Shown here in pieces: positions 1 to 15,236 of a stretch of 64,000 bases of DNA. Each line of letters starts with the position of its first letter. Within the stretch, counting starts at the first letter, position 1. Made by a program: the position numbers and the translations under genes. The stretch is from positions 2,848,001-2,912,000 of the forward strand of contig OY970296.1 of assembly GCA_963716175.1 (NCBI GenBank). Direction: 5' to 3'. The notes beneath the pieces were generated by a model, which worked only from the letters and a program-made list of their open reading frames with translations, ran no database searches and was not told the DNA's origin. Source of the DNA: an uncultured Armatimonadetes bacterium. Its GTDB lineage: Bacteria > Armatimonadota > Hebobacteria > Hebobacterales > Hebobacteraceae.

Positions 1-2
1 TC

Positions 3-713
3 CTGGCAAGTGGCCGCTGTTGCTTCGAGATGGCGCCACTGCTGGGGGCGCGGGCGCGCATCGCGGCCGAGCCGGAGCCGCAGGCCCTTTCCCATCTCTC
101 GGATGAGGAGGGGAATCCCATCAGCCTGTCACCGGCGCGGCTGCTGGTGTGGCGCCAGCCGGAGCAGGGGAAGGAGTATGTGATCGGTGCCGATGTGGGG
201 GAGGGCCTGGCCCATGGCGATCCCTCCGCCGCCTGTGTGCTGGACAGGGAGACAGGGGAGCAGGTGGCGGAGCTGCACGGGCGCATTGCCCCGGGGAGGT
301 TCGCCCGGTTGCTGGCGGCGCTCGGGATGCTCTACCTTGGGGCGGAGCTGGCGGTGGAGTCCAACAACCACGGCCATGCCACCCTGGACGCGCTCCACAA
401 CACCCTCAACTACTCGCCCCTGCACCGCTACCGGCGCTATGACCAATCGGGGCTGGCCGGGGAGGCGCTGGGCTGGCCCACCAACGCCCGCACCAAGCCG
501 CTGATGATCGACGAGCTGGCGGAGGCAATTGCGGAGGGGCACCTGCTGATCCATTCAGAGGGGCTGGTGGATGAATGTCTCACCTTCATCACCACCGACA
601 GCGGATCGCGGGAAGCCCAGCCCGGCAAACACGATGACCGGGTGATGGCAGCAGCCATCGCCTGGCAGGTGAGAAAGCGACCGTGGCCTCAGGTGTGGGG
701 CTTTCAGGTGTAG
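3..713 (+). CDS. Phage terminase large subunit, C-terminal nuclease part (5'-truncated by window edge)
   Basis: RNase H-like TerL motifs YVIGADVGEG, ESNNHG, GWPT, HDDRVMA. The frame is open to position 3 (LASGRCCF) and aligns with the full paralog at 32631-34220. Confidence 0.85.
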   Translation: MASGRCCFEMAPLLGARARIAAEPEPQALSHLSDEEGNPISLSPARLLVWRQPEQGKEYVIGADVGEGLAHGDPSAACVLDRETGEQVAELHGRIAPGRFARLLAALGMLYLGAELAVESNNHGHATLDALHNTLNYSPLHRYRRYDQSGLAGEALGWPTNARTKPLMIDELAEAIAEGHLLIHSEGLVDECLTFITTDSGSREAQPGKHDDRVMAAAIAWQVRKRPWPQVWGFQV

Positions 714-739
714 CCGCCAGCGGCGGGAAGTGCCGACCC

Positions 740-767
740 CGCGCGTGCCCGGCAATGGGCACGCGCG
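740..767 (+). terminator. 11-bp GC hairpin downstream of terL (terminator/REP-like)
   Basis: CGCGCGTGCCC-ggcaat-GGGCACGCGCG; only a weak T-tract follows. Confidence 0.45.
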
Positions 768-768
768 C

Positions 769-885
769 TTGTGGCGTCAGAAGATGCTATACCCTCTGCC
801 AAGCGGCCTGGGCCCGAACCGGCGTTTGTGGCGCGAGAAGATGCTATGGCATTTGTCAAGCGGCCTGAGGCACCGAACTGCGTGT
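769..885. repeat. Imperfect 57-bp tandem duplication spanning the IS110 right end and flank
   Basis: TTGTGGCG..AGAAGATGCTAT........CAAGCGGCCTG at 769 and again at 826. Confidence 0.8.
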
Positions 886-2055
886 CATGAGATGGTTGGC
901 TTCGTAGTCCGGATCAAAGGGCCGGCCCGTCTTGAGGAGGGCGAAGATGATCCGGAGCAGCTTGCTCATGCAGGCGATGATTGCTGCCTTGGGACGCTTG
1001 CCCTCGGCCAGTTTCCGAAGGTAGTACTGTCGCAGGACGGGGTTGCGATTGCGTACCGAGAGGGCGGCCAGGCAGAGGGCATGACGCAGGGCAGCAGGCC
1101 CACACTTGGATAGCTTGACCTTCCCCGCGAAGCGCCCTGACTGCCGGAACCGGGGATTGAGGCCAGCGAAAGCGATTGCTCGGGTGTCCGTATCCAGCTG
1201 CTCGACGGGGAGCTCAGCCAGGATCACTGGGACGGTGGCGGCGCCCAGGCCCTCGATGGTGAAGAGCAGATTCCCCTGCACTTGCTCCGCGATGGTGTTC
1301 TCCAGCGCCGCGAGACTGCGCTGCAGCTGGCGGATCGCCGCCACCAGCTGCCGCACCACCACGGCGTCGGTTGTGGTACCTTGCTCTCCTGGGATCGATC
1401 TGGCTGACGCCACCAGACGGTCGGCCCGCAGCTTTCCCACCCGGCGGGTGTTCGCTTTCAGCTGTGCCGCTCTGTCTGGCCGCGCCCGTGCCAGCATGCC
1501 TCCGGTGGGGTATCGATCGAGCACCGCCAACGCGCCGTAGCAGTCAAGGCGGTAGAACCCGCGCTCCACACTGGGGTTGACGCGCTCCAGCAAGCTGTGG
1601 AGCAGGTTCACCTGAGCCACCAGACTCGTCAGCAACGTGTGGCGGCTGCGAGTGAGCCGGGCCAGAGCTGCTTGCTCTGCAGCCACCGTTGCGCGAGGTC
1701 GGAGGGCTCGGCAGTAGCGAGCCAAGACGACGGCATCCACCCGATCGGTCTTCGTGCGCGCCATCAACACCTTGGCGAAGTGATGGCTGGAGCGAGCATT
1801 GACCACGCTCACCGTAAAGCCGGGCCGGGAGCGCAGGAACGCTGCCAGCCGGTGACCGTAGTTGCCGGTGGCTTCCAGGCAGACATGCAGCTCGCGGCCG
1901 TCGGGCAGCTTCGCCAGTGTGGTCAGCAGGCTCTCATAGCCAGCCGCATCATCGGTGAATTCGAAATCCTTCGTCCGCAGCTCGCCGTCTCCGTCCACCA
2001 CCGCCGCCATATGGCGGCCCTTGCTCACGTCGATCCCCACGAAGTACTGGCGCAT
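856..2055 (-). CDS. IS110 family transposase (DEDD recombinase)
   Basis: VGIDVSK, CLEATGNY, KTDRVDA, AGLNPRFRQSG motifs; ATG at 2055 preceded by GGAGGCAAGGAGA. Confidence 0.95.
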   Translation of the reverse strand: MRQYFVGIDVSKGRHMAAVVDGDGELRTKDFEFTDDAAGYESLLTTLAKLPDGRELHVCLEATGNYGHRLAAFLRSRPGFTVSVVNARSSHHFAKVLMARTKTDRVDAVVLARYCRALRPRATVAAEQAALARLTRSRHTLLTSLVAQVNLLHSLLERVNPSVERGFYRLDCYGALAVLDRYPTGGMLARARPDRAAQLKANTRRVGKLRADRLVASARSIPGEQGTTTDAVVVRQLVAAIRQLQRSLAALENTIAEQVQGNLLFTIEGLGAATVPVILAELPVEQLDTDTRAIAFAGLNPRFRQSGRFAGKVKLSKCGPAALRHALCLAALSVRNRNPVLRQYYLRKLAEGKRPKAAIIACMSKLLRIIFALLKTGRPFDPDYEANHLMTRSSVPQAA

Positions 2056-2099
2056 TCTCCTTGCCTCCACTATCATGGACGTGCGGTGGCCGGGGCCTC

Positions 2100-2300
2100 C
2101 TGGCTGCTCAGTCCTAACCCTCACTCGGCTCAATGTGTGGTCGTCTGCCACAAGATGCTTGATCTGGGCTTGAGGCTGGGCCGGGAGCGACGTTCTTCTC
2201 GGTTGGGTCAAGGCCCGAGTCGGAATAGTGTCGTCTCCCGGCTCACCGCCTCCCCCAACTTGCCTAACGGCCACTCCCCAATCCTGCATGAAGCCACCAC
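2100..2300 (-). ncRNA. Putative IS110 bridge RNA in the left non-coding end
   Basis: Target loop closed by GCCGGGAG-ACGAC/GTCG-CTCCCGGC with guides ATTCCGACT and CGAGAAG. Donor loop has AGCATCT and inner stem TGTGG/CCACA. Guides match the flanks and ends; boundaries approximate. Confidence 0.75.
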
Positions 2301-2476
2301 CATCCATGATACGAGTCGGATTCGCGCGGCCGGCGATGCCGAAGTGATACTCTCGGGGTGATCTTACCGTGGGCTGACAGGCATAGGTTGCTTTGCCACC
2401 GGGATGGACGGTCGCGGAGAAGGCTCTCGACCGAGGTCCGTCTGCTGCTGCGGTGGGCCGCTGTCGATCGCTGCGG

Positions 2477-4057
2477 CTAGTGAAGAGAGAAACCGGGTGC
2501 CGCCCGCGACGACACCGGGTTCAGAATATGAGGCGATTCTGTGGACTGGCCCGACCGCGCGTCGAAGTCTGCCAGTTCGCCATGTTCCCAGAGGTCGGTC
2601 AGCGCTTCCACGACAGTGGGATCGAACTGGGTGCCAGCCAGAGCCTGGATCTGCAGAACTGCTGCCAGAGGGATTGCCCCGCGCCGGTAAGGCCGGTTGG
2701 AGACGATGGCGTGGAAAGCATCTGCCACGGTAACCACGCGCGCCAGGAGGGGTATCTCCTCACCTTTCAGCCCGTCCGGATAGCCGCTGCCATCCCACCA
2801 CTCGTGGTGGCTGCGGATCATGGCGAGGGCCGAGGGACCAGGATTCAGGGGCTGGACAATGTCCTGGCCGATCAGCGTGTGCTGGTGGCAGGTATCAAGC
2901 TCTTCCTCCGTCAGAGGCCCCCGCTTCAGGAGCACGGCATCAGCGATCCCGATCTTGCCCAGATCGTGCAGAGGGCAGTAGGCCTCCAGGGCCTCGGCGG
3001 CACGCTCTCCCAGACCGAGCCTCTCGGCCAAGCGGAGCGCCAGCCAGGTGACGGCCTCCCCGTGGGCGGCGCTGTAGAAATCGCGGGCGGCGAGCGAACG
3101 CACCAGCGCGTGTAGGGTTCTGAAATAGGATTGCCTCAACTGCTGGTGAAGCTCCGCGCTCTCGATGGCTTTGCTGGCCATGTTGGCCAGGGTGGTGAGC
3201 AGGTTCAGGTCCTCGGTATCGAAGGTCGCCTGTCGGGTCGCTGCCAGGGAGCCGCTCACGACATCGGAGACCTTCATCGGGGCGGAGATAGTGGCGCGGA
3301 TCTGATCCCAGGTTCGCAGTCGGTGCCCGATCTCGGGTGCGTCATGCAGACAGCGGGGCGACGGGCCTGTCTTGGCCGCAGCCTTGGCGGCCGCAACCGG
3401 GTCGTCGGGACCTCCGTCGCTTGGGCCGAGCAGGCCCGCGCTGCGCGTGTGAATGCACTCGCCTTTCGAGTTGTCCAGCAGCACGAGCGAGGCGGCATCG
3501 GCCTGCACCTGGGCTACCAGGGCCTCCACTACCAGCTCCGAGATGCGCTCGATATCTAGTGTCCCGGCCAGATGAACGCTGGTTTCGCAGAGCTTGTTGA
3601 GGCGGCTGATCCGGGCATCGAGGGCCCGGGCAGTGTCGTGGAGTTGGTCGATCAGGCTGCGGTTCTGGGCGCGCTGCTCGCGTTCCTTATCGGCGAAATA
3701 GGCAACGGTGCAAGCGAGAAATGCCAGCAGGCCGATGAGCAGCAGCGGCTCGGAGTAGTCGGCCGTCGTGATCTCCTGCCCATAGGCGACCAGGAGCACG
3801 AAAGCCAGGCCCAGCACCCCCACCAAGCAGAGGGCCACCCATAGGAGCTGCTGCCTGCGCCGGTCCGGGGTGTAATCCCCCTGCCGGGCCAGCGACATCA
3901 GGCCTGCCAGGCTGTCTTGTGCAGCGCCCAACTCTGCCCCCCTTTCACCGGTGGCCGCGGGAGCGCCCACCTGGCCGCTCCAAGGAGCAGGCGACCGACG
4001 ATCTCGCCAGAGCTGGTCCCGGACAGGCGGTTCTATGCCCTTGTGGCGTACCCGCAC
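2477..4057 (-). CDS. Membrane-anchored GAF + HD-GYP phosphodiesterase (start uncertain, possibly 3898)
   Basis: Two TM segments, GAF-like region, HDLGK and HHEWWDGSGYPDGL motifs. Confidence 0.9.
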   Translation of the reverse strand: MRVRHKGIEPPVRDQLWRDRRSPAPWSGQVGAPAATGERGAELGAAQDSLAGLMSLARQGDYTPDRRRQQLLWVALCLVGVLGLAFVLLVAYGQEITTADYSEPLLLIGLLAFLACTVAYFADKEREQRAQNRSLIDQLHDTARALDARISRLNKLCETSVHLAGTLDIERISELVVEALVAQVQADAASLVLLDNSKGECIHTRSAGLLGPSDGGPDDPVAAAKAAAKTGPSPRCLHDAPEIGHRLRTWDQIRATISAPMKVSDVVSGSLAATRQATFDTEDLNLLTTLANMASKAIESAELHQQLRQSYFRTLHALVRSLAARDFYSAAHGEAVTWLALRLAERLGLGERAAEALEAYCPLHDLGKIGIADAVLLKRGPLTEEELDTCHQHTLIGQDIVQPLNPGPSALAMIRSHHEWWDGSGYPDGLKGEEIPLLARVVTVADAFHAIVSNRPYRRGAIPLAAVLQIQALAGTQFDPTVVEALTDLWEHGELADFDARSGQSTESPHILNPVSSRAAPGFSLH

Positions 4058-4110
4058 TCCGCGAGAGAGTCGCTTCCGTCAGTGTGGCCTTCGCGCGGCA
4101 GTCCGGAATG

Positions 4111-4145
4111 AGATTGGACGCCCAGCGAGACTGGGCGTCCAATCT
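4111..4145. repeat. Perfect 15-bp inverted repeat upstream of the HD-GYP gene
   Basis: AGATTGGACGCCCAG-cgaga-CTGGGCGTCCAATCT. Confidence 0.8.
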
Positions 4146-4980
4146 TCGCGCGAGAGCAAGCAGTCTTACCGACACATATCTTATTCCATAGCTCACACCT
4201 AATGTATAAACGGCCGTATATTGCGGAGTCATCTCGTGACTGGCGCACTACTTCGGGGCCCCCTGGGAGTACCGCGTCAACGTCAGACCGCACGCAGCTG
4301 TCGGGCGCCGCCGAGACCCCTCGTGGCGGTCAAGAGGTGGCCAGGATCTCCTGGCAAGGCAGGGGGTCTGACTAGCCCCGTCGCATAGATCACTGCGTGG
4401 ACGCGGCGCTAAGCCGAGACGCCAGGGGCGTTGCGACATTGCTCCCGGCTGGCGCTGCTACCCTCACGACGGCCTCATCGGTAGCCAACAGGCATAGCCG
4501 GCTCCAGGGCGAGATGACTAGTACACTTGGTTTGCTTCGGAATCCGCGCGCGGTTTGGATCGGAATCAGTGTTCAGTTTCCCCCGGAATATCCAGAAGTA
4601 TCCAGATCTCGCCGAGCGCTATGCCCCTCGTTCAGCGGAGACAGGCGCCCCTTCTACAGGTCTCGACTGGAGTGCGGCGGCGATGACGGCAGTTGTCATC
4701 CTGGGCGAGGAGTGCAGACTGGTCGCGTAGAGACTCTGCACAGCGGCCGCAGACTGGCCGCCGTATGCCGCATGGAGGAGGACAGGTGGAGGCAGGTTCA
4801 GGAGTCCTGCTGCGCAGCCAGAAGTGTGGCGCGCTGTCAGGCCGCAGGGGCTGGACTAGCTCCCGCCGGTCGACACCAGGGTGTGCGGCACATGGCCAAT
4901 AGCCTGTCGAGTTGCTGCATCACGTGTGGTATATACATAGTGTAAGGGTTACGGAAGCATTCCAGTAGGAAAGGCAATCC

Positions 4981-5409
4981 ATGAACCGGCTCAAGAAAAC
5001 TCGAGGTCGGCCCAATATAGTGGGCATTGATAAAGGAGTCGGCCCGCTGGAGGCGCAGGTGATGCGGGCGATCTCCACACTCCCTCTGCCTGTTTCGGTT
5101 CGCGACGTTTGCGACGCCCTGGCCAAGGACGGGTACTTCGCTTACCAAGGCGTGCTGAACTGCATGAACCGCCTGGTGCGTAAGGGCATCCTGGAGCGCA
5201 CCAAGCATGGCAACCTATTCCAGTACCGCCCCCTGGTGAGTGCCGAGGAATTGTCCGCCCAAGTGGTCACCAACGTGCTAGATCACATGGGCGGAGAGCT
5301 CGACCGGGTGATCTGCCGGGTGCTCGATCTGGATCCAGATGTCGGGGCCGAGCAACTTGCCGAGTTGAGGCGCAGAGTGCAGGCCATGTCTCACCGAAAG
5401 AAGAGATGA
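4981..5409 (+). CDS. BlaI/MecI/CopY family transcriptional repressor
   Basis: GPLEAQVM...SVRDV...MNRLVRKGILERTK...FQYRP winged helix; RBS GGAAAGG; adjacent to an M56 gene. Confidence 0.9.
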   Translation: MNRLKKTRGRPNIVGIDKGVGPLEAQVMRAISTLPLPVSVRDVCDALAKDGYFAYQGVLNCMNRLVRKGILERTKHGNLFQYRPLVSAEELSAQVVTNVLDHMGGELDRVICRVLDLDPDVGAEQLAELRRRVQAMSHRKKR

Positions 5410-5413
5410 CCAC

Positions 5414-6493
5414 GTGTCGGTCTGGCAGTTGGTGACAGACCTGGTGGGACAGCATCTCATCCCCGCGCTTCTTGCCTCGGCTGCTATCTACCTGGCGCTA
5501 CGCCTGCTGTTTGCTGTCGGGCGACTCCGGAGGCCTCGCGACCAGGTGGTCTTCCTCCAGGCCTGCATGCTGAAGGCGCTGCTGGCTCTCTGGGCAGGAG
5601 CCAGCGTCTCCTGTTTGGCTAAAGGTGCCCCACTGTTCGGCTACTTCGCCGTTCGCCTGCCTAGCCCCTTACCGGATAGTCTGCCACTGGAATCCCGGAA
5701 GCTGGCAGCGGCATTGACCGATTCGACCCTCGCGGTGCCTGTGCTAGTAGTAGTGCTGATGCTGGCAGGGGGGTTGCTGTGTTACCGCTGGCTGCGCTTG
5801 GCTCCGGTCTACCGTGGTGTCTACACAACCCGGATGGCGGACCCGGCAGCATTTCGAGAGCTGGTCCGCCTTTTCGAAGATCTGGTGGCAAGGGCGTACC
5901 AGAGATGCCATTGGCTTCCACGCCCCAGGCTGATGCTGGTTGAGGAGGCGCCCTGTCCTGCCTTCACCATGGGCGTCCGCCCTCCCATCATCGTGCTGTC
6001 GGCCGCACTGGCTCAACGCCTCGGGCCGCGCGAACTCGCGGGGGTCCTCGCCCATGAGATCGCGCACGCCCGTCGGCTTGACTATCTCGGAAGATGGTTC
6101 GCTACAGTGCTGCGGGACATCATGATCTGGAACCCCTTCGTAGTGGCCTGGTACGAGCAATTGCTGCAGCGGCAGGAAGAGGCCAGTGACGACCACGCGG
6201 CCGAGCTGCTCGATGATCCAGTTGCGGTGGCAAGCGCCCTGGTGGAGGTCGGTGCATACGGACGGCACCGCCCTGCGATCTCGATGGGCCCATTGGCGGT
6301 CTGGCGAATGGGGAAGGATGTGCGGAGACTCAAGGAGCGACTGGATCGTCTCGAGCAGAGAGTGCTGGGGCTCTGCCTCCCCCGGTGGCCATCGTGCCTG
6401 CTGTACTCCGTTGTCGCGGTTTTCCTTGTGGCTCAGCCCTACGTGGGTCTGTCGCTCCCGAATCTGCTCCTGCTGTTGATGGTCGCCCACTGA
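5414..6493 (+). CDS. M56 (BlaR1/MecR1-like) membrane metallopeptidase without a penicillin-binding domain
   Basis: TM helices, PAFTMG..PIIVL, HEIAH (HExxH), WNPF, QEEASD. Confidence 0.9.
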   Translation: MSVWQLVTDLVGQHLIPALLASAAIYLALRLLFAVGRLRRPRDQVVFLQACMLKALLALWAGASVSCLAKGAPLFGYFAVRLPSPLPDSLPLESRKLAAALTDSTLAVPVLVVVLMLAGGLLCYRWLRLAPVYRGVYTTRMADPAAFRELVRLFEDLVARAYQRCHWLPRPRLMLVEEAPCPAFTMGVRPPIIVLSAALAQRLGPRELAGVLAHEIAHARRLDYLGRWFATVLRDIMIWNPFVVAWYEQLLQRQEEASDDHAAELLDDPVAVASALVEVGAYGRHRPAISMGPLAVWRMGKDVRRLKERLDRLEQRVLGLCLPRWPSCLLYSVVAVFLVAQPYVGLSLPNLLLLLMVAH

Positions 6494-6544
6494 GACGGCT
6501 CCAGGCCTCACGCTAAGCCTCTACGAGAGAGGTGCCTCGACCCC

Positions 6545-6573
6545 TTGACAGGATGTGCCGGCCCCGCTATGAT
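6545..6573 (+). promoter_or_regulatory. sigma70-type promoter for the precursor/rSAM operon
   Basis: TTGACA (6545-6550), 17 bp, TATGAT (6568-6573). Confidence 0.8.
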
Positions 6574-6594
6574 ATATCAGCTGGCGTATATATC
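6571..6594. promoter_or_regulatory. Palindromic operator candidate overlapping -10/TSS
   Basis: GATATAT-N10-ATATATC. 6576-6592 matches 4919-4935, upstream of the blaI-like gene, at 13/17. Confidence 0.5.
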
Positions 6595-6620
6595 TCAGTA
6601 TCCATAAGAGGCGGAAGACC

Positions 6621-6779
6621 ATGACAGCATTGAACCAGACGGCTGAGCTATGGACCAGTCAGCTCCTGCACCTTGCTGCGGCAGGGACGCTGCCGGGCGC
6701 AGGTGAGGCAGGCTCCGACCAGCCCGGGCCCGCCTGCTGCTACCTGCTCTGTCACATCTGCTGTTGGGTTGTCTGCTGA
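6621..6779 (+). CDS. Putative RiPP precursor peptide, 52 aa: MTALNQTAELWTSQLLHLAAAGTLPGAGEAGSDQPGPACCYLLCHICCWVVC
   Basis: Hand-translated, below the ORF-track cutoff. GAGG/GGAAG RBS, consensus promoter upstream, six Cys in the last 14 aa, directly before a SPASM enzyme. Confidence 0.85.
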   Translation: MTALNQTAELWTSQLLHLAAAGTLPGAGEAGSDQPGPACCYLLCHICCWVVC

Positions 6780-6807
6780 CTCGGAGGTTCCGGAACCCGG
6801 GAATCGG

Positions 6808-8202
6808 ATGCACCTTACGCGGCTCGCCAGTCTTCATCGGTTGAGTTCAGACGCGAGCCTACTGGTCAACGCCCTGTCGGGCGCGGTAGACTTGGTCAAC
6901 AACGCCATCAGGACCAAGCTACTGCAGATCAGCCTTGGTCAGCAACCGGCTCTTCCCGAACATGACCGCCAGGCCCTAACGGAGCGTGGTTACCTGTTTG
7001 AGAGCGAGGAGGCGGAGCGATCGACCTTGCAGGAAATGTACCGCGCCTATCAGCAGGCGACGGCCTCTCGACCCTTGCAGTTGGTTGTGTGTCCCACCTA
7101 TGGCTGCAACCTGGCCTGTAGCTACTGCTTTCAGGCCGCCGACATGCGGGCCAGACCTGAGGTGATGACAGAACGTCAGGTGCAGGACCTATTCGTCGCC
7201 TTGCCACACCTTCTCGCGTCCAGGCCGAGCAAGTCCTCCCAGATCGTGCTCTTTGGGGGAGAGCCTCTGCTGCCCGCTACGGAGCTGGCGGTGGCCGCAA
7301 TCTTGGCAAGGGCAGAGGCCAGTGGCAGTAAGGTCCAGATCGTCACGAATGGCTTCCACTTGGAGCGATTCGCCGCCCTGCTGAAGCGGCACCGAGCGAT
7401 TCTCCAAGGCGTGCAGATCACTCTGGATGGGCCAGCAGCTGTCCATGACACGCGCCGCAAGCGTACCAACGGGCAGGGCTCGTTCGAGAGAGTGGTGCGA
7501 GCGGTCGGGATCTGCCTAGACCTGGGCCTGGGCGTCAACCTGAGAGTCAACTTGGATGCCCAGAATCTCGGTTCGCTGGAAGAGCTGGTTCAGTTGCTGC
7601 AGGAGCAGGGCTGGATCGGCCGCGAACGGTTCCGGTGCCAACTCGCGCCTGTAACCGACCACTTGGGTACGAGCACCTACCCTTTCCTGATGAGGGAAGA
7701 CGAACTAGTGGAGCCGGTGCTGGGGCTGTGGCGTCGCCGGCCTGAACTCAGGGACGCGCTTGATTTCCAGCTGTTCCGCGTGCTTCACCATCTGATCGCG
7801 GTGATGGAGCCCGGGCAGAGGGCGAGAACGTTCCCCCGGTTCCATTACTGCGAGGCCGCTCGCGGTGAGATGCTTGCCTTCGGCCCCGACGGACTGGTCT
7901 ACGTTTGCCCGGAGTCAATGGGGACGGCGCGCTGGGCAATCGGCACCTACTCCCCGCGCTACCGCCTGTGGTCTCGACGGCTGCGTCAGTGGGAGGCAAG
8001 AAGCGTGCTGGATCTGCCCGAGTGCCAGGACTGCACCCTGGCTACCTTCTGTGGCGGCGGATGCGCCTATGCCGCGCTGCGGCGGTTCGGCAGCCCGGGG
8101 CATGGTATGTGTGAGGGAGCACCGGAGGTGACGAGGGCTTACATAGGGTTGTTGGGAGAACGGATGAGCCGATCAGGCTTGCCGAAAGCGGCTACCGCTT
8201 AG
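6808..8202 (+). CDS. Radical SAM/SPASM peptide maturase with N-terminal RRE-like domain
   Basis: LLVNALSGAVD-type N-domain, CNLACSYC, FGGEP, and SPASM Cys set C..YVC..CQDC..FCGGGC..C. The ATG at 6808 is preferred because the longer ORF overlaps the precursor. Confidence 0.9.
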   Translation: MHLTRLASLHRLSSDASLLVNALSGAVDLVNNAIRTKLLQISLGQQPALPEHDRQALTERGYLFESEEAERSTLQEMYRAYQQATASRPLQLVVCPTYGCNLACSYCFQAADMRARPEVMTERQVQDLFVALPHLLASRPSKSSQIVLFGGEPLLPATELAVAAILARAEASGSKVQIVTNGFHLERFAALLKRHRAILQGVQITLDGPAAVHDTRRKRTNGQGSFERVVRAVGICLDLGLGVNLRVNLDAQNLGSLEELVQLLQEQGWIGRERFRCQLAPVTDHLGTSTYPFLMREDELVEPVLGLWRRRPELRDALDFQLFRVLHHLIAVMEPGQRARTFPRFHYCEAARGEMLAFGPDGLVYVCPESMGTARWAIGTYSPRYRLWSRRLRQWEARSVLDLPECQDCTLATFCGGGCAYAALRRFGSPGHGMCEGAPEVTRAYIGLLGERMSRSGLPKAATA

Positions 8203-8303
8203 CCTCCTTAGTTGATGGAGCTCAGTTTCTGCCTTGCTTCTCAGCGGGACCTGCTCAAGGCCGGTTTGGCCTAGGAGTTCGGGGTGCCAGGAAGGACAAG
8301 CGA

Positions 8304-8447
8304 ATGATGGCAGATGCTGCCAGCACAAGTTCTGCGGCCTGTCCTACACCTTCCGAGGATCTGGACTGGCGGCCTGAAGCACTTGTTCGTGGCTGCGCTA
8401 CGACGACCTGCCAACTGCCGGCGAGAGTTCATGGCCGTGGATGCTGA
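8304..8447 (+). CDS. Possible second small Cys-containing peptide, 47 aa
   Basis: MMADAASTSSAACPTPSEDLDWRPEALVRGCATTTCQLPARVHGRGC, with AGGAAGGA RBS; overlaps the start of rSAM2. Confidence 0.35.
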   Translation: MMADAASTSSAACPTPSEDLDWRPEALVRGCATTTCQLPARVHGRGC

Positions 8448-10347
8448 TCACAAGAGCGCCCGGCACTCGCTCACGGGAACGCTTCAGGGGGCCGGTGATG
8501 AGTCGCAAGCTGTACTCGCCCGCGGAGTGGTTCCATCCACGGGGATGTCGCCCACTGTGCATCGACAGAAGTTGCTGCCTTCTGTCGAGTTGAGCGTTAC
8601 TCATCGCTGTACCATGCGCTGTCGCTACTGCTACTCGGGCCACGATAAGGCTTCGCGAGGTGGGCCGCTGGACATGGCGGACGAGGTCATCGAGGCTGCC
8701 CTGGACTGGGCTGTGAATGACTTCGCACGGGATTGCCCTCGCCTCCATGTCACCACTGGTATCACCGGCGAGGGTCTGCACCGCATCGACGCCTACGAGC
8801 GCATTCGCCGCCGCGCTGAGGAACTCCAGGCAGAGACCGGAAAGCATATCACCTGCGCCATAGGGAACACCAACCTGACCCTGGCTGCCTACCAGGGACG
8901 CTGGGCGCTGCTGACTAGCCCGGCCTCCCACGTATCCAGCATCAGCATTGACGGCCCTCGCCACATCCATGACGCCATGCGCGTTTTCCCCGACGGCCGC
9001 GGTACCTATGACACGATCGCGCCTTCCATTGCTGGACTCGTTGCGAGGGGCGCGCAGCTATCCGCACAGGCCGTCATCACCGGCCAGTACCCGAACGTCA
9101 CGGAGGTCTTCCTCCACCTGTGCGAGCTGGGATTCCGGGCGATCGAACTGCGGCCGGTCCGCGCGCCACACGATCAGCCGTTTGCGATCAGCCCGCGGAC
9201 TGTCGACGCGGTGAAGCAGGGGTTCAGCGAGTTCGCTGACTTCCTATTCTCTCAGGAGGATCGCCTCCTGCTCGCCTACCTCGCAAAGATATGGCACATC
9301 GAGGACTGCCTGGGACGCTTCCTGGTGCGCGTGGCATCGGGTCACCAGGTCAACTACCGCTGCCCGGCCGGCAAAGACGGCGTTTGCGTCGACACCGATG
9401 GGGGGGTATATCCCTGCCCTGGCATGGTCGGTGTGCCTGAGCTTCGTATGGGTTCGATCTACCGTGGAATCGACGAGGGCGCCTACAGATTGTACTACGA
9501 GGACCTGCTGGTGACCAGCAAGTCGGTCTGCAAAGACTGCGCGATCCGCCACCTCTGTGGTGGCGGGTGCTACCACGCGGCCTTCCTGGCAAACGGCCGG
9601 GTTGACACGCCGGATCCCTGCGACTGTGAGCTCACGCGCCACCTGGTCGAGCTCGCCGCGGGCATGGTAGCGCGCCTGAGGGAGGAACGGCCAGCTGTGT
9701 TCGCCGCTATCCGCCATCCCCTTGGGGGAAGGGTGCATCCTTCCAGCCAGCTGCTCTGCATCGCCACTAAAGGTCCACTCTCACTCGACGGACCCGCGGC
9801 GGAGTGGCGCTCCCGCGCGCCGCTGCGGTTCAACCGAGCTGAGCAGTTGAAATGGATGATCTGGGGAGGACCCTCCGAGATCTCAGGTGAGATTCACATG
9901 CGTTGGGATTCCCGACAGTTGTACGTGATGGCCGAACTCGCAGGTTGCCTGGTCGCACGGCACCTGGCAGGACGCCTCCTGGAGATCTACCTGGTTTCAC
10001 TCAGGGACCTCAGCGATGGGTTGATCCCAGAGTGGTGGAAGCTGTTCGCTAACTACCACCTCTTGGCGTATACCCCGGCCGAGCCGGCCGCAGCAGTTCG
10101 CACTGGCGGAGGTGCTGTTGCGCGGGACCAGGTTGGTGTAAGGGTCGCGACCCGTGTAGAGCACCAGGGCGAGGCGATGCGCGTGCGCATGATCATCCCG
10201 TGGTCGGCGCTTCCCCTGTTGGACGTCCGCCGTGACGAGTATCTGGCTGTCAATGCATTCATCTATCCGTTTGGTGGGCACAGCGAAGAGGGCGCGATGG
10301 TGTGGCTGCCCGGCCAGCCGTTCGGAATGCTTCGGCTGGAGAGGTAG
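8431..10347 (+). CDS. Radical SAM/SPASM protein fused to a C-terminal CBM9/DOMON-like domain (start uncertain, ORF open from 8314)
   Basis: CTMRCRYC, SIDGPRHIHD, SPASM YRC..YPC..CKDC..CGGGC..C. C-terminal LDG..EW, MRWDSRQLYV, IPWSAL. Confidence 0.85.
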   Translation: MAVDADHKSARHSLTGTLQGAGDESQAVLARGVVPSTGMSPTVHRQKLLPSVELSVTHRCTMRCRYCYSGHDKASRGGPLDMADEVIEAALDWAVNDFARDCPRLHVTTGITGEGLHRIDAYERIRRRAEELQAETGKHITCAIGNTNLTLAAYQGRWALLTSPASHVSSISIDGPRHIHDAMRVFPDGRGTYDTIAPSIAGLVARGAQLSAQAVITGQYPNVTEVFLHLCELGFRAIELRPVRAPHDQPFAISPRTVDAVKQGFSEFADFLFSQEDRLLLAYLAKIWHIEDCLGRFLVRVASGHQVNYRCPAGKDGVCVDTDGGVYPCPGMVGVPELRMGSIYRGIDEGAYRLYYEDLLVTSKSVCKDCAIRHLCGGGCYHAAFLANGRVDTPDPCDCELTRHLVELAAGMVARLREERPAVFAAIRHPLGGRVHPSSQLLCIATKGPLSLDGPAAEWRSRAPLRFNRAEQLKWMIWGGPSEISGEIHMRWDSRQLYVMAELAGCLVARHLAGRLLEIYLVSLRDLSDGLIPEWWKLFANYHLLAYTPAEPAAAVRTGGGAVARDQVGVRVATRVEHQGEAMRVRMIIPWSALPLLDVRRDEYLAVNAFIYPFGGHSEEGAMVWLPGQPFGMLRLER

Positions 10348-10588
10348 CCTCGTACTGCTCCCAACACGGGAGTCGCGGGCAGGGCCTCGCGCATGGGGCG
10401 ACTGTGAGGCGGATTGCCAAGTGGGTGCTATCGGTCGAGCGGACTGCTCTCGCAGACAGAGTGTACGACCCGGCCCCGGACAGTGCGCAAGCTGGGGCGC
10501 TGAAGAGGGGGCCTGCGCCACGTGCCGGGGCCGGGCATCTCTGCGGGCTTGGGCAGAGGCTGAGAAGGGTCCAGATAGCCATTCGCCC

Positions 10589-10712
10589 TGTCACCGGTCG
10601 GTTCAAAACCAGCCAGTTAGTTATCCTTCTTAGCCTTGCTGTGTTCCTGCTTGCTTGAAGGTCTTGTCGCCGCTTCTTGGGGTGTGTCTTTGAGCCGGTA
10701 GCTGCGGCCAGC
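10589..10712 (-). pseudogene. IS21 right end and istB C-terminal remnant
   Basis: TGTCACCGGTCGGTTCAAAACCAGCCA terminus; minus-strand GRSYRLKD...stop at 10617. Confidence 0.6.
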
Positions 10713-12200
10713 TGTGGTGGTCACTTCGCCGTAGAACCGCGCCAGCCTTGCTCTGAGGAGGCTTTCTGCTGTATCGTGGGCGCTCCATTTCGGCGGAGGA
10801 TGCACCCACGTGGAAGCAGCTGGGACCTCTGTTTGTCTGGTGATGAAAGCAGTGCTGCTGAGTGCCCGCTGGGCGGGACGGACACGGCGGCTGGCGCTGG
10901 AGCAGGCAGCGAAGGCTGCCGGTGATGGAGCGCAGGCGCAACCCGAAAACGTCATGCTTCGGGACACCATCGAGCTGCTGGTTGAGCAGCTCGCCTGCGC
11001 GCAGCGCCGCCTGAAGGCAGCCAACATCCGAATGCCCTACTCCCCGGCAGAACGGCTCCATATCCTGTGGTGCATCCACTACTTCCGCATCCCCCGGCGG
11101 CAGATCCCGAAGCACTTCGGTGTGGCGCGCTCCACCGTCTGGCGATGGCTCCGCCGACTGCAGGATGGCATTGGGCTCTGCGGCAGGAAGTGCCAGGCCT
11201 CGGTGCGCCGGACCTCGGAGGCACTGGAGGGGCTGGTGTGGGAGATGGCATCGGCCAATGCTGACTGGGGTCGACGCCACATTGCCCTGGTGCTGGGAAC
11301 CTTGGGCATCTTCCTGGCGGCCTCTACGGTCCGCAACATCTTGCTCAGGCCGAAACCCCGGCCAGCAGGTACGCCCGCTACTGCGGCCGGGAAGCCGGAA
11401 GAGAAGAAGCCGCGCCAGATCGTCGCCCGTTATCCCAACCATGTGTGGAGCGCGGATCGCACTCGGGTCTGGAGATGGCGCATCTGGCCCACCTGGGCGC
11501 TGGTTGCCATCGATCACTTCTCCCGCAAGGTGGTCGCCTGCTGTCACCTGGAGGGCCCCAATGCCGGCTGGGTGGTGGAAGCTCTGGAGGAGGCGTTCCT
11601 GCGCTACGGACCGCCGAAACACATCATCACCGATCAAGAGGGCGTGTTCACCTCTGATGTGTTCCGTGACCTGCTCTGGCGATGGCACGTGAAGCAGCGA
11701 TTCGGTGCGGTGGGAAAGCACGGATCGATTGCCGTGACCGAACGCGTCATCCGGACGCTGAAGTACGAGTGGCTGCGGCGCGTACCGGTGATCCGGGGGC
11801 TGGATCACCTGGAGATGCTGCTGGCCGACTTCGCCTGCTACTACAACTGCTGGCGGCCCCACACCACCCTTAACGGCGCGGTCCCGGAGCTCATTCACGC
11901 TGGGCAGCAATGGGCGGTCCCGCCGAAGACGGCGAAGACCATTCCTGCTCACATCGAGCACCGTTTCTTCCCCGAGACTCGCGTCACAGGCTTCCGTCTC
12001 GCGGCCTAGCTGCCTCGACTGGTTGCCCTCTGTTCCTCCCTCGCGCTCAGCCGCGCACTGTACGCGCACACCACCGCAGGCCATGTCGCCATCATCTTGC
12101 CGCCGTCGCGGTCTCAGTCGGCAATATCCAGTGTCATCCCCAGCGCTGACAGCTCCCGAGAGAGCGGCTCAGGCGGTTCTACGGCGAAGTGACCACTTCA
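10713..12200 (+). mobile_element. IS481-like (rve) insertion sequence, copy 1
   Basis: Perfect 24-bp IR GTGGTCACTTCGCCGTAGAACCGC (10717-10740 / 12173-12196); TG...CA termini; no clear TSD. Confidence 0.85.
10810..12009 (+). CDS. DDE integrase-core (rve) transposase
   Basis: HTH (GVARSTVWRW), HVWSAD, IDHFSR, IITDQEG, TERVIRTLK. Confidence 0.9.
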   Translation: MEAAGTSVCLVMKAVLLSARWAGRTRRLALEQAAKAAGDGAQAQPENVMLRDTIELLVEQLACAQRRLKAANIRMPYSPAERLHILWCIHYFRIPRRQIPKHFGVARSTVWRWLRRLQDGIGLCGRKCQASVRRTSEALEGLVWEMASANADWGRRHIALVLGTLGIFLAASTVRNILLRPKPRPAGTPATAAGKPEEKKPRQIVARYPNHVWSADRTRVWRWRIWPTWALVAIDHFSRKVVACCHLEGPNAGWVVEALEEAFLRYGPPKHIITDQEGVFTSDVFRDLLWRWHVKQRFGAVGKHGSIAVTERVIRTLKYEWLRRVPVIRGLDHLEMLLADFACYYNCWRPHTTLNGAVPELIHAGQQWAVPPKTAKTIPAHIEHRFFPETRVTGFRLAA

Positions 12201-12403
12201 GCCGGCCCCAACTGGGCCAGCACCTCCGCTGGCTCGGGGAAGGGCCCAGCGGAGTCCAGATAGCCTCTCATCTTCGCCAGATCCCGATAGCGGCGCACCG
12301 TCCCGCGGGAATGTCCCAGATCCCGACAGATCGCCCGTACGGACTGGCCGCGTCGTAACCGATACACGATGTCCACGATGAGATCCACGCTGAGTCGCTC
12401 CAT
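12201..12403 (-). pseudogene. IS21 istA N-terminal HTH fragment, cut by the IS481-like element
   Basis: MERL...YRLRRGQSVRAICRDLGHSRGTVRRY, ending at the IS end. Confidence 0.7.
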
Positions 12404-12473
12404 GTCTCCTCCTGACCGGTCTCTCAGGTCAGGAGGGAATGCCTTGTGGCAACGACCCAGCACCGCCTCAGGG

Positions 12474-12573
12474 GTGGTACCCACCCCCGACTATGGGGTG
12501 GTACATACCCCCGAACATCGGGTGGTACAGATGGGGCGACTACGCGTGGTACAGTCTAGCCCGGCGGCCGACA
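12474..12573 (-). repeat. IS21 left end with four 24-bp-periodic repeats
   Basis: GTGGTAC at 12474, 12498, 12522, 12546; terminus ...CCGACA. Confidence 0.75.
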
Positions 12574-12758
12574 CCGGCCGCGGAACCCCTTGGCTACCGG
12601 CAGCGCGTATGGATCACCACCGAGTGTTAGTCGGCGTGCCGGCATGACCCAGCCAGAGGCGAAATCGGCGTCGAGACTTGACCCACTGGACATGAGAGCC
12701 GGAGAATCAAGAGGAGGAATTCACGGACCAGACTGAACTGATCTCGCTAATCCAGGGC

Positions 12759-12808
12759 GGGTCAGTATTGGCCGCCGATGGTGGGTCAGTTTTGGATGCC
12801 GATTGACA
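12759..12808 (+). mobile_element. Isolated IS21-type end
   Basis: GGGTCAGT.TTGG..GCCGAT twice at 24-bp spacing, ending TTGACA. Confidence 0.6.
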
Positions 12809-13023
12809 GGTCAGCCTAACCGGCGTCCCCAGCTTGCTCTGCACGCACTCAATGCCCTACGGCAGGGGCAGGTGCTCCCTGCAGAGCCCCGGGCCTTCAC
12901 TATCGAGCACCCAGCATCTTCCGACGGCGAACGCCGGAAGAGCAACCACTGTGCCATCGCTGTAGATATCGAATCTGCAGTGCCCATGGCAAGGGACTGC
13001 CGCATAGAGACCCGCCGTAGCGA

Positions 13024-13794
13024 TCATGTCATTGCCGATGGCTTCGAGGAGTTCCGGGGTTCCCAACGTCCCACCAAGGATGATGCTTTGACCATCGGGC
13101 ACATGTTGGTGCAATACACCTCGACGGGCTTCCCAGATGCGGCGATGTGCTCAATGACCTGGGGACTGGGCAACGCATAGGCCCCTGGGCCGCCACCTGC
13201 CGATATCACGATGATACTCCCTTCGTCGCGCAGTATCTTCGCCCACAGCGCCGCTGACGACCCGGTCGCGGAGCCATGGTGGCTCACTTTGACAAGGTGC
13301 GACGCGATCGGTCGACCGACTATACTGGCCGCGAACACCTCATACGCGGCCAGCGCCTCCTCAAGAGCCGTCGTTGTGCTGTCTCCGAGCAACAGGATAG
13401 ACACTGGCCCAACGAGTAACCAGACGACACAGGAGATGGCGTTTGGACTGATTGGCTCCGGTGCTTCTCCCTCAAGGAGAGAGTCTATGAACGCGTCCCA
13501 CACGGTCGCCTCGTGCTGATCCGCGACGTGACTAGTCGGACCCAGCGCGTATACGTCCAGCCACTCTTCCAGGCGGATGACGTGTGACGGAGAGCTGATC
13601 CGCCAATATGGATAGGGCGCGCTTTCCCACTGCCCTTGGACTTGCAGGAAGCTGTCATAGATCCGACCAAACTCTTGGTGCCTATCACCAACGGTGGCGT
13701 ACAGGGACGCCATCAGTTCTCGGGTCTTCTCATCCTGCATCGCGTCGTCGGCCGATGTCGCGCGCAGCTCCTCAAGCCGCCCAGCAAGGCGCGA
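13024..13794 (-). pseudogene. ComEC/Rec2-like metallo-beta-lactamase-fold protein, 5'-truncated by IS
   Basis: LLLGD, VKVSHHGS, VISAG motifs; the frame stays open to the IS end at 13795 and HxHxDH is missing. Confidence 0.7.
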
Positions 13795-15222
13795 CCCGTC
13801 GTGTCCAGAAACTCATCTGCCCCACAGGATGCTCCTGGAGCCTCTCTCGTGATATCCTCGGCACTCGCTGATACCCCCGTTGCGGGAGGCTACCGAGGAT
13901 GGAGAGGGATGCTGAGCGAGGAGTGGACTGGGTCCACCTCCCCGTGATCGCCACCGTGGCCCGGCTGCTGTGCCGGGAACTGACACTGCAGAACGAGTAC
14001 CTGCTGTTGGAGAACCGGACGCTCAAGTCCAAGGTCCCGGGCCGGCTGCGCTTCACCGATGAGGAACGTCGCTCTCTCACCGAAGCCGCGCTGGCGATGG
14101 GCCGGTCGCTGATGAAGGAAGTGGTCAGCATCGTCAAGCCGGAGACGATCCTGGCTTGGCAGCGCCGCCTGGAGCGGAAGAAATGGGACTACAGCGCGCG
14201 GCGAACTCGCGGACCGGGCCGGCCCCGGACAGCGGATGCCATTGCGGCCCTGGTCTGTCGGCTGGCACGGGAGAACCTTTGGGGGTATCAGCGCCTCCGC
14301 GGGGAGCTGCTCAAGCTCCGCGTCATTCTCTCCAAGGGCTGCATCGCGGATATCCTGCGCCGGAACGGACTGCCTCCCGCCCCGCAGCGCGCCGGGCTCA
14401 CCTGGCAGCAGTTCCTCTCCCGCCATGCGGAGGTGCTGGTCTGTGCCGACCTGTTCACCAAGGAGGTGTGGACGCTGTCTGGCCTGAAGACGGCCTATGT
14501 GCTGTTCGTGCTGCACCTGGGTACCCGCCGCATCTTACTCGCCGAGGCCACCTTCTTTCCTCACGGACAGTGGATGGGCCAGATGGCGCGCAACCTGCTG
14601 ATGGCGTGCGAGGACGCTGGGGTCCCGCCTCGCTTCGTCCTGCATGATCGGGACAAGCTCCTGATCTGGGACTTCGATGCGGTCCTCACCGGGGCCGAGG
14701 CGAAGGTGGTGAAGACGCCCTTCCGCGCACCCGACGCGAATGCCCATGCGGAACGCTGGGTGCGCAGCGTGACGGAGGAGTGCCTGAACCACCTCGTTCT
14801 CTTTGGCCTGGGCAGTCTTCAGCGGGCGCTGCGGATCTACCGGGACTTCTTCAACGGCCATCGTCCCCATCAGGGGATCGGCAATCGGATACCGGGGCGC
14901 CGTGCGTCAGAGGAGATGTCGCGGGATTGCGCTGGCGCGATGACGGATGGGGATCTTACGGTGGAGTGCCAGCAGTTCCTGGGCGGACTGCTTAACTCGT
15001 ACTACCGCAAGGCCGCGTAGTCAGCACGGGAGGCGTTTGGCCGACGTGAACGCCGGGCACGCATCGCCACCGGCGCTCTCGGTCGCGCGGCCAGGGCCTC
15101 TGAAAGCCACCCCAGCCCCTGCCTCCGAAGCCGGATGCTGCCACTCCATTGGCCATCACCCTGTCATCGAATCGGTCCGCATGCCTCCCGGGCAGCGCCG
15201 ATGAGTTATTGGACATGACGGG
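13795..15222 (+). mobile_element. rve-integrase insertion sequence (second family)
   Basis: 23-bp imperfect IR CCCGTCGTGTCCAGAAACTCATC / GATGAGTTATTGGACATGACGGG; no TSD. Confidence 0.8.
13899..15020 (+). CDS. Integrase core domain transposase
   Basis: VKPETILAW, WGYQRLRGEL, CADLF, HDRD, ANAHAERWV, RPHQGI. Confidence 0.9.
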   Translation: MERDAERGVDWVHLPVIATVARLLCRELTLQNEYLLLENRTLKSKVPGRLRFTDEERRSLTEAALAMGRSLMKEVVSIVKPETILAWQRRLERKKWDYSARRTRGPGRPRTADAIAALVCRLARENLWGYQRLRGELLKLRVILSKGCIADILRRNGLPPAPQRAGLTWQQFLSRHAEVLVCADLFTKEVWTLSGLKTAYVLFVLHLGTRRILLAEATFFPHGQWMGQMARNLLMACEDAGVPPRFVLHDRDKLLIWDFDAVLTGAEAKVVKTPFRAPDANAHAERWVRSVTEECLNHLVLFGLGSLQRALRIYRDFFNGHRPHQGIGNRIPGRRASEEMSRDCAGAMTDGDLTVECQQFLGGLLNSYYRKAA

Positions 15223-15236
15223 CTACCCTCACGGAC

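Follow-up and report, generated by a model that had tools for sequence, protein, structure and literature searches.

We found a cassette of five genes, about 5.4 kb long, in the genome of an uncultured Armatimonadetes bacterium of the family Hebobacteraceae. It lies in a stretch of 64,000 nucleotides (nt) from contig OY970296.1 (assembly GCA_963716175.1, positions 2,848,001 to 2,912,000 of the forward strand), which we call the window and whose numbering we use unless another locus is named. The conserved unit consists of exactly a BlaI-like repressor, a sensorless M56 protease, a short precursor peptide and two radical S-adenosylmethionine (radical SAM) enzymes with SPASM domains, here called rSAM1 and rSAM2. 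The best explanation of these genes as a whole, to which we assign a probability of roughly 0.6, is that they form a self-regulated cassette for a peptide made on the ribosome and modified after translation (RiPP) that receives thioether crosslinks by radical SAM chemistry. Part of this explanation is that the cassette is self-contained and horizontally mobile, which we likewise regard as probable. The identification of the small peptide as a RiPP precursor encoded with its maturases is considerably firmer, and very likely correct.

A conserved precursor peptide and its gene neighbourhood

The precursor gene is an open reading frame (ORF) of 52 amino acids (aa) with an ATG start, at 6621-6779 on the forward strand. 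It is missing from the program-made ORF list of the window. An earlier, sequence-only reading of this DNA had picked out the ORF and had assigned it a TTGACA-17-TATGAT promoter and a ribosome-binding site of its own, and all of these are present. The promoter agrees with the consensus at 11 of 12 positions and is the top match in 4700-10800, a region in which the promoter scan gave 3 sites (1.0 +/- 1.0 in shuffled sequence). The sequence AAGAGG occurs at 6606-6611, 9 nt upstream of the ATG, and the stop codon is separated from the rSAM1 start codon (6808) by 28 nt. The description of a Cys-free leader and a Cys-rich core is also borne out: the leader has no cysteine, and all six cysteines lie within the C-terminal 14 residues, as two CC-aromatic-x-x-C units.

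The peptide does not match any curated family, which agrees with the earlier statement that its core pattern belongs to no recognised class. A search of the precursor against Pfam-A and NCBIfam 20.0 gave no family at E<=0.01, and seven precursors of the family gave no NCBIfam family at E<=10, including no SCIFF-type precursor model. There is no second copy in the bacterium's own genome, where the seven other matches all have E>=0.29. The read runs listed for expression include no RNA run; the 15 listed are DNA runs, with at most 0.32 of the sampled words.

Orthologues of rSAM1 occur in 4 of 60 relatives searched, all of the same family (58-63% identity, E<=1e-180). A metagenome scan for rSAM1 gave 32 loci, 22 of them at 56-72% identity. 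The sequence-only reading had proposed to collect homologues of rSAM1 and to translate the DNA upstream of them, and this check is positive. Each of the 18 main-clade loci for which 150 nt or more of upstream DNA is available, the window included, has a Cys-rich ORF in a mechanical six-frame listing that ends 21-34 nt upstream of rSAM1 (223 nt in L029). Because several pairs of loci are near-duplicates (L037/L038, L042/L043 and L027/L036), the 18 loci correspond to about 14 independent examples.

An alignment of 16 precursors has 12 invariant positions (M1, N5, T7, L10, W11, L15, G36, C39, C40, C47, C48 and C52). The leader motif N-x-T-x-x-L-W is kept across the family, and the leader ends in G-P-(D/N/A). 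The aromatic residue after the first CC is W in 12 loci, Y in one and F in one, and that after the second CC is W in 13 and Y in one (14 loci in each case). The middle cysteine of the first unit, C44, is lost in 5 of the 16 sequences. The strict tandem CC-[Y/W]-x-x-C repeat that had been described is thus real in the window's peptide, but does not hold across the family. Since the middle cysteine can be missing, the family signature is better given as CC-aromatic, four or five residues, then CC-aromatic-x-x-C. A comparison by eye of middle-cysteine loss with the form of rSAM2 revealed no link between the two.

Codon usage indicates what is being conserved. In the precursor alignment, four different codons occur in each of four columns, two of them Leu, one Gly and one Pro. 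Given that invariant residues are kept through differing synonymous codons, selection acts on the peptide and not on the DNA. Judged by this comparison, the small ORF is a real gene of a conserved, selected peptide family.

The family extends beyond the loci found through rSAM1. A precursor profile has 24 matches at E<=1e-3 among 1.84 billion representative proteins, and 22 of these are proteins of 39-73 aa. Twenty matches were retrieved, of which 18 have the canonical ending, one has an extra residue after the last cysteine and one is divergent. The distribution within the phylum is narrow: the profile is positive in 5 of 401 genomes sampled across it, all in one family, and the cassette was found in 4 of 14 other genomes of that family.

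The extent of the conserved unit was established by tblastn of the five window proteins against the loci. BlaI occurs in all 14 loci whose sequence reaches 1.6 kb or more upstream of rSAM1, and full-length M56 in 13 of these. In 21 loci the sequence extends for 1.5 kb or more downstream of rSAM1, and 20 of them have an rSAM2 homologue. It follows rSAM1 immediately on the same strand in 18 loci, lies on the opposite strand in L029 and is found at a distance of 3.7 kb in L050. No rSAM2 occurs within 5 kb in L048. Genes beyond the five vary in every locus and include transposases, serine recombinases, a GH2 glycosidase, Cas6 and methyltransferases, among others; several loci have mobile-element neighbours. 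No exporter, immunity gene or second protease is conserved across the flanks of the main clade, in line with the earlier observation that no exporter is visible.

The repressor and the protease are each the sole member of their family above the Pfam cut-off in the 4.56-Mb genome. M56 orthologues (E<=1e-80) occur in exactly the 4 of 60 relatives that have rSAM1, and the remaining 56 have matches only at E>=8e-12. Given that both genes are single-copy and that M56 co-occurs with rSAM1, the BlaI/M56 pair belongs to the cassette and moves with it.

One genome (G005) has genes of the cassette on two contigs. Contig C131 (L061, 464-2646) carries BlaI, M56 and a full precursor, followed by ORFs without a Pfam family. 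On contig C270 (L027, 3175-7270), both maturases are accompanied by another BlaI, an M56 remnant of 48 residues and a truncated precursor. This second precursor has lost its leader and last unit, and the same truncated form occurs in the metagenome locus L036.

A distant clade has rSAM1 proteins of 36-41% identity and is missing rSAM2. In two of its loci, L052 and L055, M56 is followed directly by a precursor-like ORF on the same strand, and the pair is divergent from rSAM1. The precursor-like ORF has the same leader motif and a CC-Trp-rich core in which the other cysteines are lost. These loci, of about 11 kb each, contain no BlaI or rSAM2 by tblastn. A third distant locus, L053 (4729-10900), encodes a precursor with three CC-aromatic units, a 338-aa protein without a Pfam family and a MacB-like ABC/FtsX exporter. 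It has no M56, and IS66 and recombinase genes are located upstream. BlaI is likewise absent, by tblastn over stretches of about 11 kb, from L053, L058 and L060.

The two maturases and modelled leader recognition

The sequence-only reading had placed an RRE-like radical SAM/SPASM enzyme (RRE, RiPP recognition element) 28 bp after the precursor, followed by a second radical SAM/SPASM enzyme, and both sequence motifs and the RRE fold support this. In rSAM1, the CxxxCxxC motif corresponds to C100/C104/C107 and the SPASM cysteines to C348, C367, C406, C409, C415, C419 and C435; all are invariant in 19 orthologues. An rSAM1 profile matches the solved maturase CteB (5WGG/5WHY) at 3.3e-21 over residues 6-422, and because the alignment starts at residue 6, the match includes the N-terminal RRE. 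In the AlphaFold2 (AF2) model of rSAM1 (mean predicted local distance difference test score, pLDDT, of 70), residues 7-87 form three strands and three helices, and a Foldseek search with the protein ranks CteB, TigE and SuiB first. The N-terminal pieces of rSAM1 and rSAM2 match no Pfam family even at E<=5.

The nearest curated family of rSAM1 is TIGR04463, with 139.5 bits against a cut-off of 525, over model positions 9-274 and with the RRE region included. Next come the CefB, geopeptide, ryptide and Clo7bot maturases. No curated cut-off is reached by any of the 19 rSAM1 orthologues, the best match being TIGR04463 at E 8.2e-43. For rSAM1 itself, scores also stay below the cut-offs of the SCIFF maturase model TIGR03974 (69 bits, cut-off 425) and the PapB model NF047865 (90.6 bits, cut-off 340). 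The same is true of the cyclophane (triceptide) models YhhB, FxsB and GrrM (80.9, 70.3 and 41.7 bits, cut-offs 445, 370 and 310).

A predicted complex of rSAM1 with the precursor has an ipSAE of 0.77 (0.73, 0.77 and 0.77 in the three runs), and the best of three controls has 0.00. The mark applied to such predictions is reached by 58 of 80 solved complexes and by 2 of 110 mismatched pairs, a calibration that holds only roughly when, as here, partners are given as our own input alignments. The runs share at least 42% of contacts, and the pLDDT of the partner is 51-52. Confident contacts in the model involve leader residues 1-22, chiefly 2-5, 7 and 10-12, which include the invariant N5, T7, L10 and W11. 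On the side of rSAM1 they involve residues 23-31, 53-61 and 73-84, which include the invariant L23, S24, G25, A26, D28, L57 and R60. The model thus places the conserved leader on the RRE of rSAM1, in the usual strand-addition mode of RREs. The core of the precursor has no confident placement.

Taken together, the locus has the features of a generic RRE-dependent radical SAM/SPASM RiPP system, namely an adjacent precursor, an RRE (in the model) and the cluster and SPASM motifs.

A more distant relative of rSAM1 (32% identity, apparently frameshifted) occurs on a contig of a Clostridia metagenome-assembled genome (L009, 798-2787), and was the sole match when the genome collection was scanned with the single rSAM1 protein. 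An 86-aa Cys-rich ORF lies upstream of it, and the first residues of this ORF carry a leader motif of the L-N-x-x-L-W type. The shared motif suggests that the leader-RRE code is older than the CC-Trp family.

The cluster and SPASM cysteines of rSAM2, with C438 as the last of them, are invariant in 11 sequences. An rSAM2 profile aligns to CteB from residue 81 (1.1e-27). The nearest curated families are the nif11-type, PapB, QhpD and SCIFF maturases, which give 137-152 bits where the cut-offs are 340-519; PapB NF047865 gives 150.4 bits (cut-off 340), QhpD 140 bits (453) and SCIFF TIGR03974 136.9 bits (425). None of the 11 rSAM2 orthologues reaches a curated cut-off (best SCIFF, E 3.5e-49). In the model, residues 1-86 are disordered, and the window's copy has no recognisable RRE; an RRE-like N-terminal segment is kept in two orthologues (L033 and L041).

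At its other end, rSAM2 carries an extra domain. The C-terminal ~200 residues are strand-rich over 474-676 in the AF2 model, and 8 of 11 long orthologues match CBM9_1 (PF06452; best E 3e-07). A protein atlas assigns the domain to CBM9_1 clusters (0.96). The window's own C-terminal piece is diverged and matches no Pfam family even at E<=5, and a word-index homologue search with this domain returned the genome's own protein only. Five loci have short forms of rSAM2 (443-526 aa) without the CBM9-like domain.

The start codon of rSAM2 is uncertain. The candidates are ATG codons at 8314, 8431 and 8545, none of which has a strong ribosome-binding site. The public gene call (P0147, 557 aa) is probably too short, because its start would fall after CxxxCxxC. 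In another locus (L049, 704-2755), an rSAM2 orthologue has an internal stop codon and is either a pseudogene or an assembly error.

Table 1. Features of the cassette and its immediate surroundings in the window
Feature	Position	Strand	Evidence or remark
GTATATAC palindrome in the blaI-like promoter region	4929..4936	+	Possible repressor box, or no more than the -10 element
BlaI/MecI-family winged-helix repressor, 142 aa	4981..5409	+	PF03965 (Penicillinase_R) 1.8e-19
Sensorless M56 (BlaR1-like) membrane zinc protease, 359 aa	5414..6493	+	PF05569 (Peptidase_M56) 3.3e-13
Sigma-70-like promoter of the precursor/maturase operon	6545..6573	+	TTGACA 6545-6550, 17-nt spacer, TATGAT 6568-6573
Two AT-rich palindromic boxes, overlapping and just past the -10 element	6570..6594	+	Candidate BlaI operator
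Precursor leader (residues 1-38)	6621..6734	+	Alignment; synonymous variation; modelled contacts of residues 1-22 with the rSAM1 RRE
Precursor core (residues 39-52 and stop)	6735..6779	+	CC-aromatic-x-x-C-x-x-CC-aromatic-x-x-C; final residue Cys
rSAM1	6808..8202	+	Radical_SAM 2.5e-19; RRE at about residues 1-90, radical SAM core, SPASM
rSAM2 gene	8314..10347	+	Radical_SAM 6.5e-06; SPASM TIGR04085 1.3e-13
rSAM2, radical SAM/SPASM part	8314..9720	+	C99/C103/C106; SPASM Cys 350, 368, 406, 409, 415, 419, 436/438
rSAM2, C-terminal beta-rich, CBM9-like domain	9721..10347	+	PF06452 in orthologues; protein atlas; AF2
rve-type transposase adjoining the cassette, not part of it	10810..12009	+	PF00665 4.8e-15

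Proposed mechanism and competing explanations

The mechanism that we infer, including its crosslink type, enzyme order, cleavage site, M56 role and an active product, would run as follows. The 52-aa precursor would be co-transcribed with both maturases from its own promoter, and its N-x-T-x-x-L-W leader would dock as an extra strand on the RRE of rSAM1. First rSAM1 and then rSAM2 would turn the cysteines of the CC-aromatic units and the C-terminal cysteine into intramolecular thioethers. These could be of the sactionine or the ranthionine type, with carbons of neighbouring hydrophobic or aromatic residues as acceptors. The two classes are defined by the bond: the Cys sulfur is joined to the alpha carbon of another residue in sactipeptides and to one of its other carbons in ranthipeptides. 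The leader would be removed near the G-P-(D/N) hinge, leaving as product a polycyclic peptide of 13-14 residues that is compact and very hydrophobic. BlaI would repress both promoters, and M56 would relieve the repression and may also cut the leader. The trigger of M56 would be a membrane-level signal, which may be the peptide itself.

The sequence-only reading had suggested that the two enzymes could add both thioether and Tyr/Trp crosslinks. Thioether chemistry is somewhat favoured by analogy: the nearest characterised relatives of both enzymes (CteB, Crp, PapB and QhpD) are thioether formers.

The regulatory part builds on the BlaI/M56 pair. The sequence-only reading had recognised this pair beside the maturases, and the two Pfam families (Table 1) and an HExxH motif confirm it. 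The closest solved relatives of the repressor are 2G9W and MecI (1OKR). The M56 protein begins with three hydrophobic segments, continues with a soluble domain in which HExxH is at residue 214, and ends after one more hydrophobic segment. It has no C-terminal penicillin-binding sensor and scores 21.6 bits with blaR1_generic (NF000326), whose cut-off is 400. The two genes are 4 nt apart, blaI ending at 5409 and the M56 gene starting at 5414. Two other assignments were rejected. A CopY-type copper repressor does not fit, since the protein has no C-terminal Cys cluster and scores 38 bits against a cut-off of 122. CaaX-like processing by an M48-like fold does not fit either, since the cysteine is not at position -4.

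Promoter regions across the loci contain possible binding sites for the repressor. Of 15 loci, 13 have a TTGAC -35 element at a distance of 71-94 nt upstream of the precursor start, and in one further locus the distance is 55 nt. A TATA(T/C)A or ATATAT box is present shortly after the -10 element in 11 of the 15 precursor promoters, and at the -10 region in 6 of 13 blaI promoters; the background is 2% of 110-nt windows (28/1395). From their sequence and position, these AT-rich boxes are candidate BlaI operators.

Several observations count against parts of this proposal. With regard to chemistry, rSAM1 also scores to families that form C-C crosslinks (ryptide 110 bits, DynA 88, YhhB 81). Known ranthionine acceptors are Asp, Glu, Thr and Asn. 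None of these is invariant in the core, and in 3 of 14 loci the D or N that precedes the first CC is replaced by A or T. The pattern of bridges cannot be deduced from the core, because the five invariant cysteines are an odd number and the middle cysteine is dispensable. The high score of the rSAM1-precursor complex may reflect memory, because solved RRE-leader complexes exist (SuiB-SuiA, 5V1T). With regard to regulation, the boxes at the blaI promoters overlap the -10 element and may be nothing more than that. The scissile Asn-Phe site of the MecI repressor is N101-F102, and the residues opposite it in the BlaI-like repressor are C-R (phmmer alignment to 1OKR, weak at 21 bits). Cleavage of BlaI by M56 is therefore not supported by the sequence. 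M56 is present without BlaI in L052 and L055, and therefore a processing role fits better than a purely regulatory one. Finally, a secreted antimicrobial would usually come with an exporter or an immunity gene, and neither is conserved here.

The alternative that survives best, which remains doubtful and overlaps with our preferred explanation, gives M56 a different main task. M56 would chiefly cut off the leader and/or serve in self-protection, with BlaI as a simple autorepressor that the main clade has gained, and M56 would be the place at which the hydrophobic product passes into or across the membrane. M56 adjoins the precursor even where the orientation has changed and both BlaI and rSAM2 are lacking (L052 and L055). 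Moreover, G005 keeps the BlaI-M56-precursor trio on one contig with maturases on another, and the M56-less distant locus L053 has an ABC/FtsX exporter instead. These three cases suggest that M56 does more than cut BlaI. The absence of any other conserved protease or exporter and the non-conserved residues at the aligned MecI site are also consistent with a peptidase. However, the analogy with BlaR1 predicts an M56 protease domain that faces the cytoplasm, and such a domain is known only to cut BlaI-type repressors. The 4-nt gap between blaI and the M56 gene is as in classical bla/mec operons, and the distant-clade sample is small, with two M56-bearing loci that have a precursor. We give even odds to the pair acting as a regulatory switch.

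It is unlikely, though less so than the readings that follow, that the same cassette performs aromatic-centred chemistry. One or both enzymes would make a cyclophane through a C-C bond, or would link Cys to indole or aryl groups inside each CC-aromatic unit, with the near-invariant aromatic residue after each CC as the reacting partner. The strong conservation of this residue in 14 loci would be explained, as would the distant cores of L052 and L055, which stay CC-Trp-rich while other cysteines are lost. The scores of 70-110 bits between rSAM1 and the ryptide, DynA, YhhB and FxsB maturases, and the presence of two different enzymes side by side in 20 of 21 loci, are also compatible with it. 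Nevertheless, the top curated and solved relatives of both enzymes form thioethers, and the cyclophane scores are far below their cut-offs (81 vs 445 and 70 vs 370). The interchange of W, Y and F argues against indole-specific chemistry in particular.

A bolder version, for which we see still less probability, is that the cassette is a closed peptide-sensing circuit of a new type, with a crosslink type not yet seen in bacteria. The sensorless M56 would directly recognise the crosslinked, membrane-partitioning CC-Trp peptide or its precursor. It would trim the leader and destroy BlaI, and the modified peptide would be product, ligand and inducer at once. The crosslinks, for example one Cys-aromatic link per CC-aromatic unit, would come from the two enzymes, one of which carries a CBM9-like domain instead of an RRE.

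It is improbable that the product instead stays bound to the cell and acts in the cell interior or the membrane, as a thiol-rich or metal-binding peptide or as a peptide-derived cofactor with a logic like that of pyrroloquinoline quinone (PQQ) or mycofactocin, whose pathways combine a precursor, an RRE, a radical SAM/SPASM enzyme and a protease. Such a role would fit the lack of a conserved exporter in the main clade, the presence of a protease in the cassette and the invariant C-terminal residues, which resemble those of cofactor precursors. The best NCBIfam match of the repressor, the copper repressor CopY/TcrY (38 bits), could also be cited, but this score is far from the cut-off of 122, and a C-terminal Cys cluster is missing from the repressor. 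Nor do the loci share a dependent oxidoreductase in the neighbourhood. An accessory trait fits better than a cofactor, because the distribution is patchy (5/401 genomes of the phylum sample and 4/14 other genomes of the family) and several loci have mobile-element neighbours.

The notion that the small ORF arose by chance, or serves as a regulatory upstream ORF without a peptide product of its own, could appeal to its shortness and to its absence from the genome's called proteins in a collection of 5.8 billion proteins, but it is already contradicted by the comparative data, namely amino-acid conservation with synonymous changes, profile matches in unrelated metagenomes, a fixed place ahead of an RRE enzyme and a modelled leader-RRE fit that the controls do not have.

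Surroundings, related systems and significance

The window's cassette is flanked by an HD-GYP protein upstream and by two rve transposases and an RHS protein downstream. Its GC content is 62-64%, compared with 61-67% in the flanks, which gives no clear island signal, and scans for tRNAs and Rfam families around the cassette found nothing. The sequence-only reading had proposed that an IS21 relic cuts the locus; the IS21 label is not supported by the model scores, and the cassette is not cut. The transposase at 10810-12009 encodes 399 aa and looks intact, and its best models are IS481 (120 bits) and IS3 (119 bits), both below their cut-offs. We rejected a truncation by an insertion element because rSAM2 is the last conserved gene in the other loci as well.

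Two rve-type transposase genes are present, at 10630-12084 and 13899-15020, with a helix-turn-helix fragment at 12179-12484. A 484-aa antisense ORF over the first of them is probably spurious. Farther downstream, a 1326-aa RHS-repeat protein with DUF6531 (16115-20095) is preceded by a TPR protein (15237-16106). This locus is unrelated to the cassette and may be a polymorphic toxin locus. On the other side, about 900 nt (4058-4980) separate blaI from the HD-GYP/GAF gene (2477-4057, minus strand). The longest ORF in this interval (4397-4945) has no Pfam family, and the interval has no Rfam match and, in a scan of 1-20000, no tRNA.

Among known systems, SCIFF/thermocellin (CteA-CteB and ScfA-ScfB; TIGR03974; 5WGG/5WHY) is alike in having a short precursor with a Cys-rich core beside an RRE-radical SAM-SPASM maturase, and CteB is the best solved relative of both rSAM1 and rSAM2. 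By contrast, the SCIFF maturase model gives 69 bits to rSAM1 and 137 to rSAM2 against a cut-off of 425, and there is no SCIFF-type precursor match. SCIFF loci have one maturase and are not known to carry a BlaI/M56 pair.

PapB/freyrasin, QhpD/QhpC and CefB (123 bits to rSAM1, cut-off 600) are also SPASM enzymes that act on Cys-rich peptides. Enzymes of these types link Cys to carbons of Asp or Glu. The cores found here differ in that they do not have regular Cys-x3-Asp or every-fifth-Cys spacing.

In the BlaI/BlaR1 and MecI/MecR1 systems, a PF03965 repressor is likewise paired with an M56 zinc protease with HExxH, in adjacent genes that are 4 nt apart. The cassette's M56, however, has no penicillin-binding sensor, and the pair accompanies a RiPP operon, not a gene for a beta-lactamase or a penicillin-binding protein. 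Mycobacterium tuberculosis also has a sensorless BlaR.

Thuricin CD is a sactibiotic of Bacillota with two precursors and its own transporter. Two radical SAM maturases, TrnC and TrnD, are encoded side by side for thioether installation, according to PMC12093266. The adjacency of two such maturases is shared, whereas the cassette has one precursor, and its second enzyme carries a CBM9-like domain.

Crp of methanogens is connected to the cassette through TIGR04463, the best curated family of rSAM1, of which CrpC is a member. The relevant passage of PMC13692751 describes CrpC as installing ranthionine links on the Cys-rich CrpA, which has a leader-like N-terminus. In that passage, Crp substrates are large proteins, and CrpA has a 17-residue Cys motif repeated 10 times, while the precursors found here are peptides of 43-73 aa with CC-aromatic units. 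The passage names three Crp proteins, with no BlaI or M56 among them.

A full-text literature search found no CC-Trp precursor and no M56 or BlaI in a RiPP cluster, although the supplements of radical SAM compendia (PMC10288494, RiPP-RaS) may list the enzymes without comment. The general logic of an RRE, radical SAM/SPASM enzymes and a Cys-rich core is familiar. Our reading is that the cassette is a new precursor and cassette variant of radical SAM thioether RiPPs, which is probably self-regulated through BlaI/M56.

New peptide chemistry and antibiotic leads come in large part from peptides modified by radical SAM/SPASM enzymes. To these the cassette adds an uncurated precursor family with CC-aromatic units and a C-terminal cysteine, two uncurated maturase subfamilies, and a radical SAM/SPASM enzyme fused to a CBM9-like domain. 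With five genes in about 5.4 kb, the system is directly testable. We have found no earlier case in which a RiPP operon and a sensorless BlaI/M56 pair are tightly linked and inherited together, and the cassette provides a handle on what sensorless BlaR1-like proteases sense.

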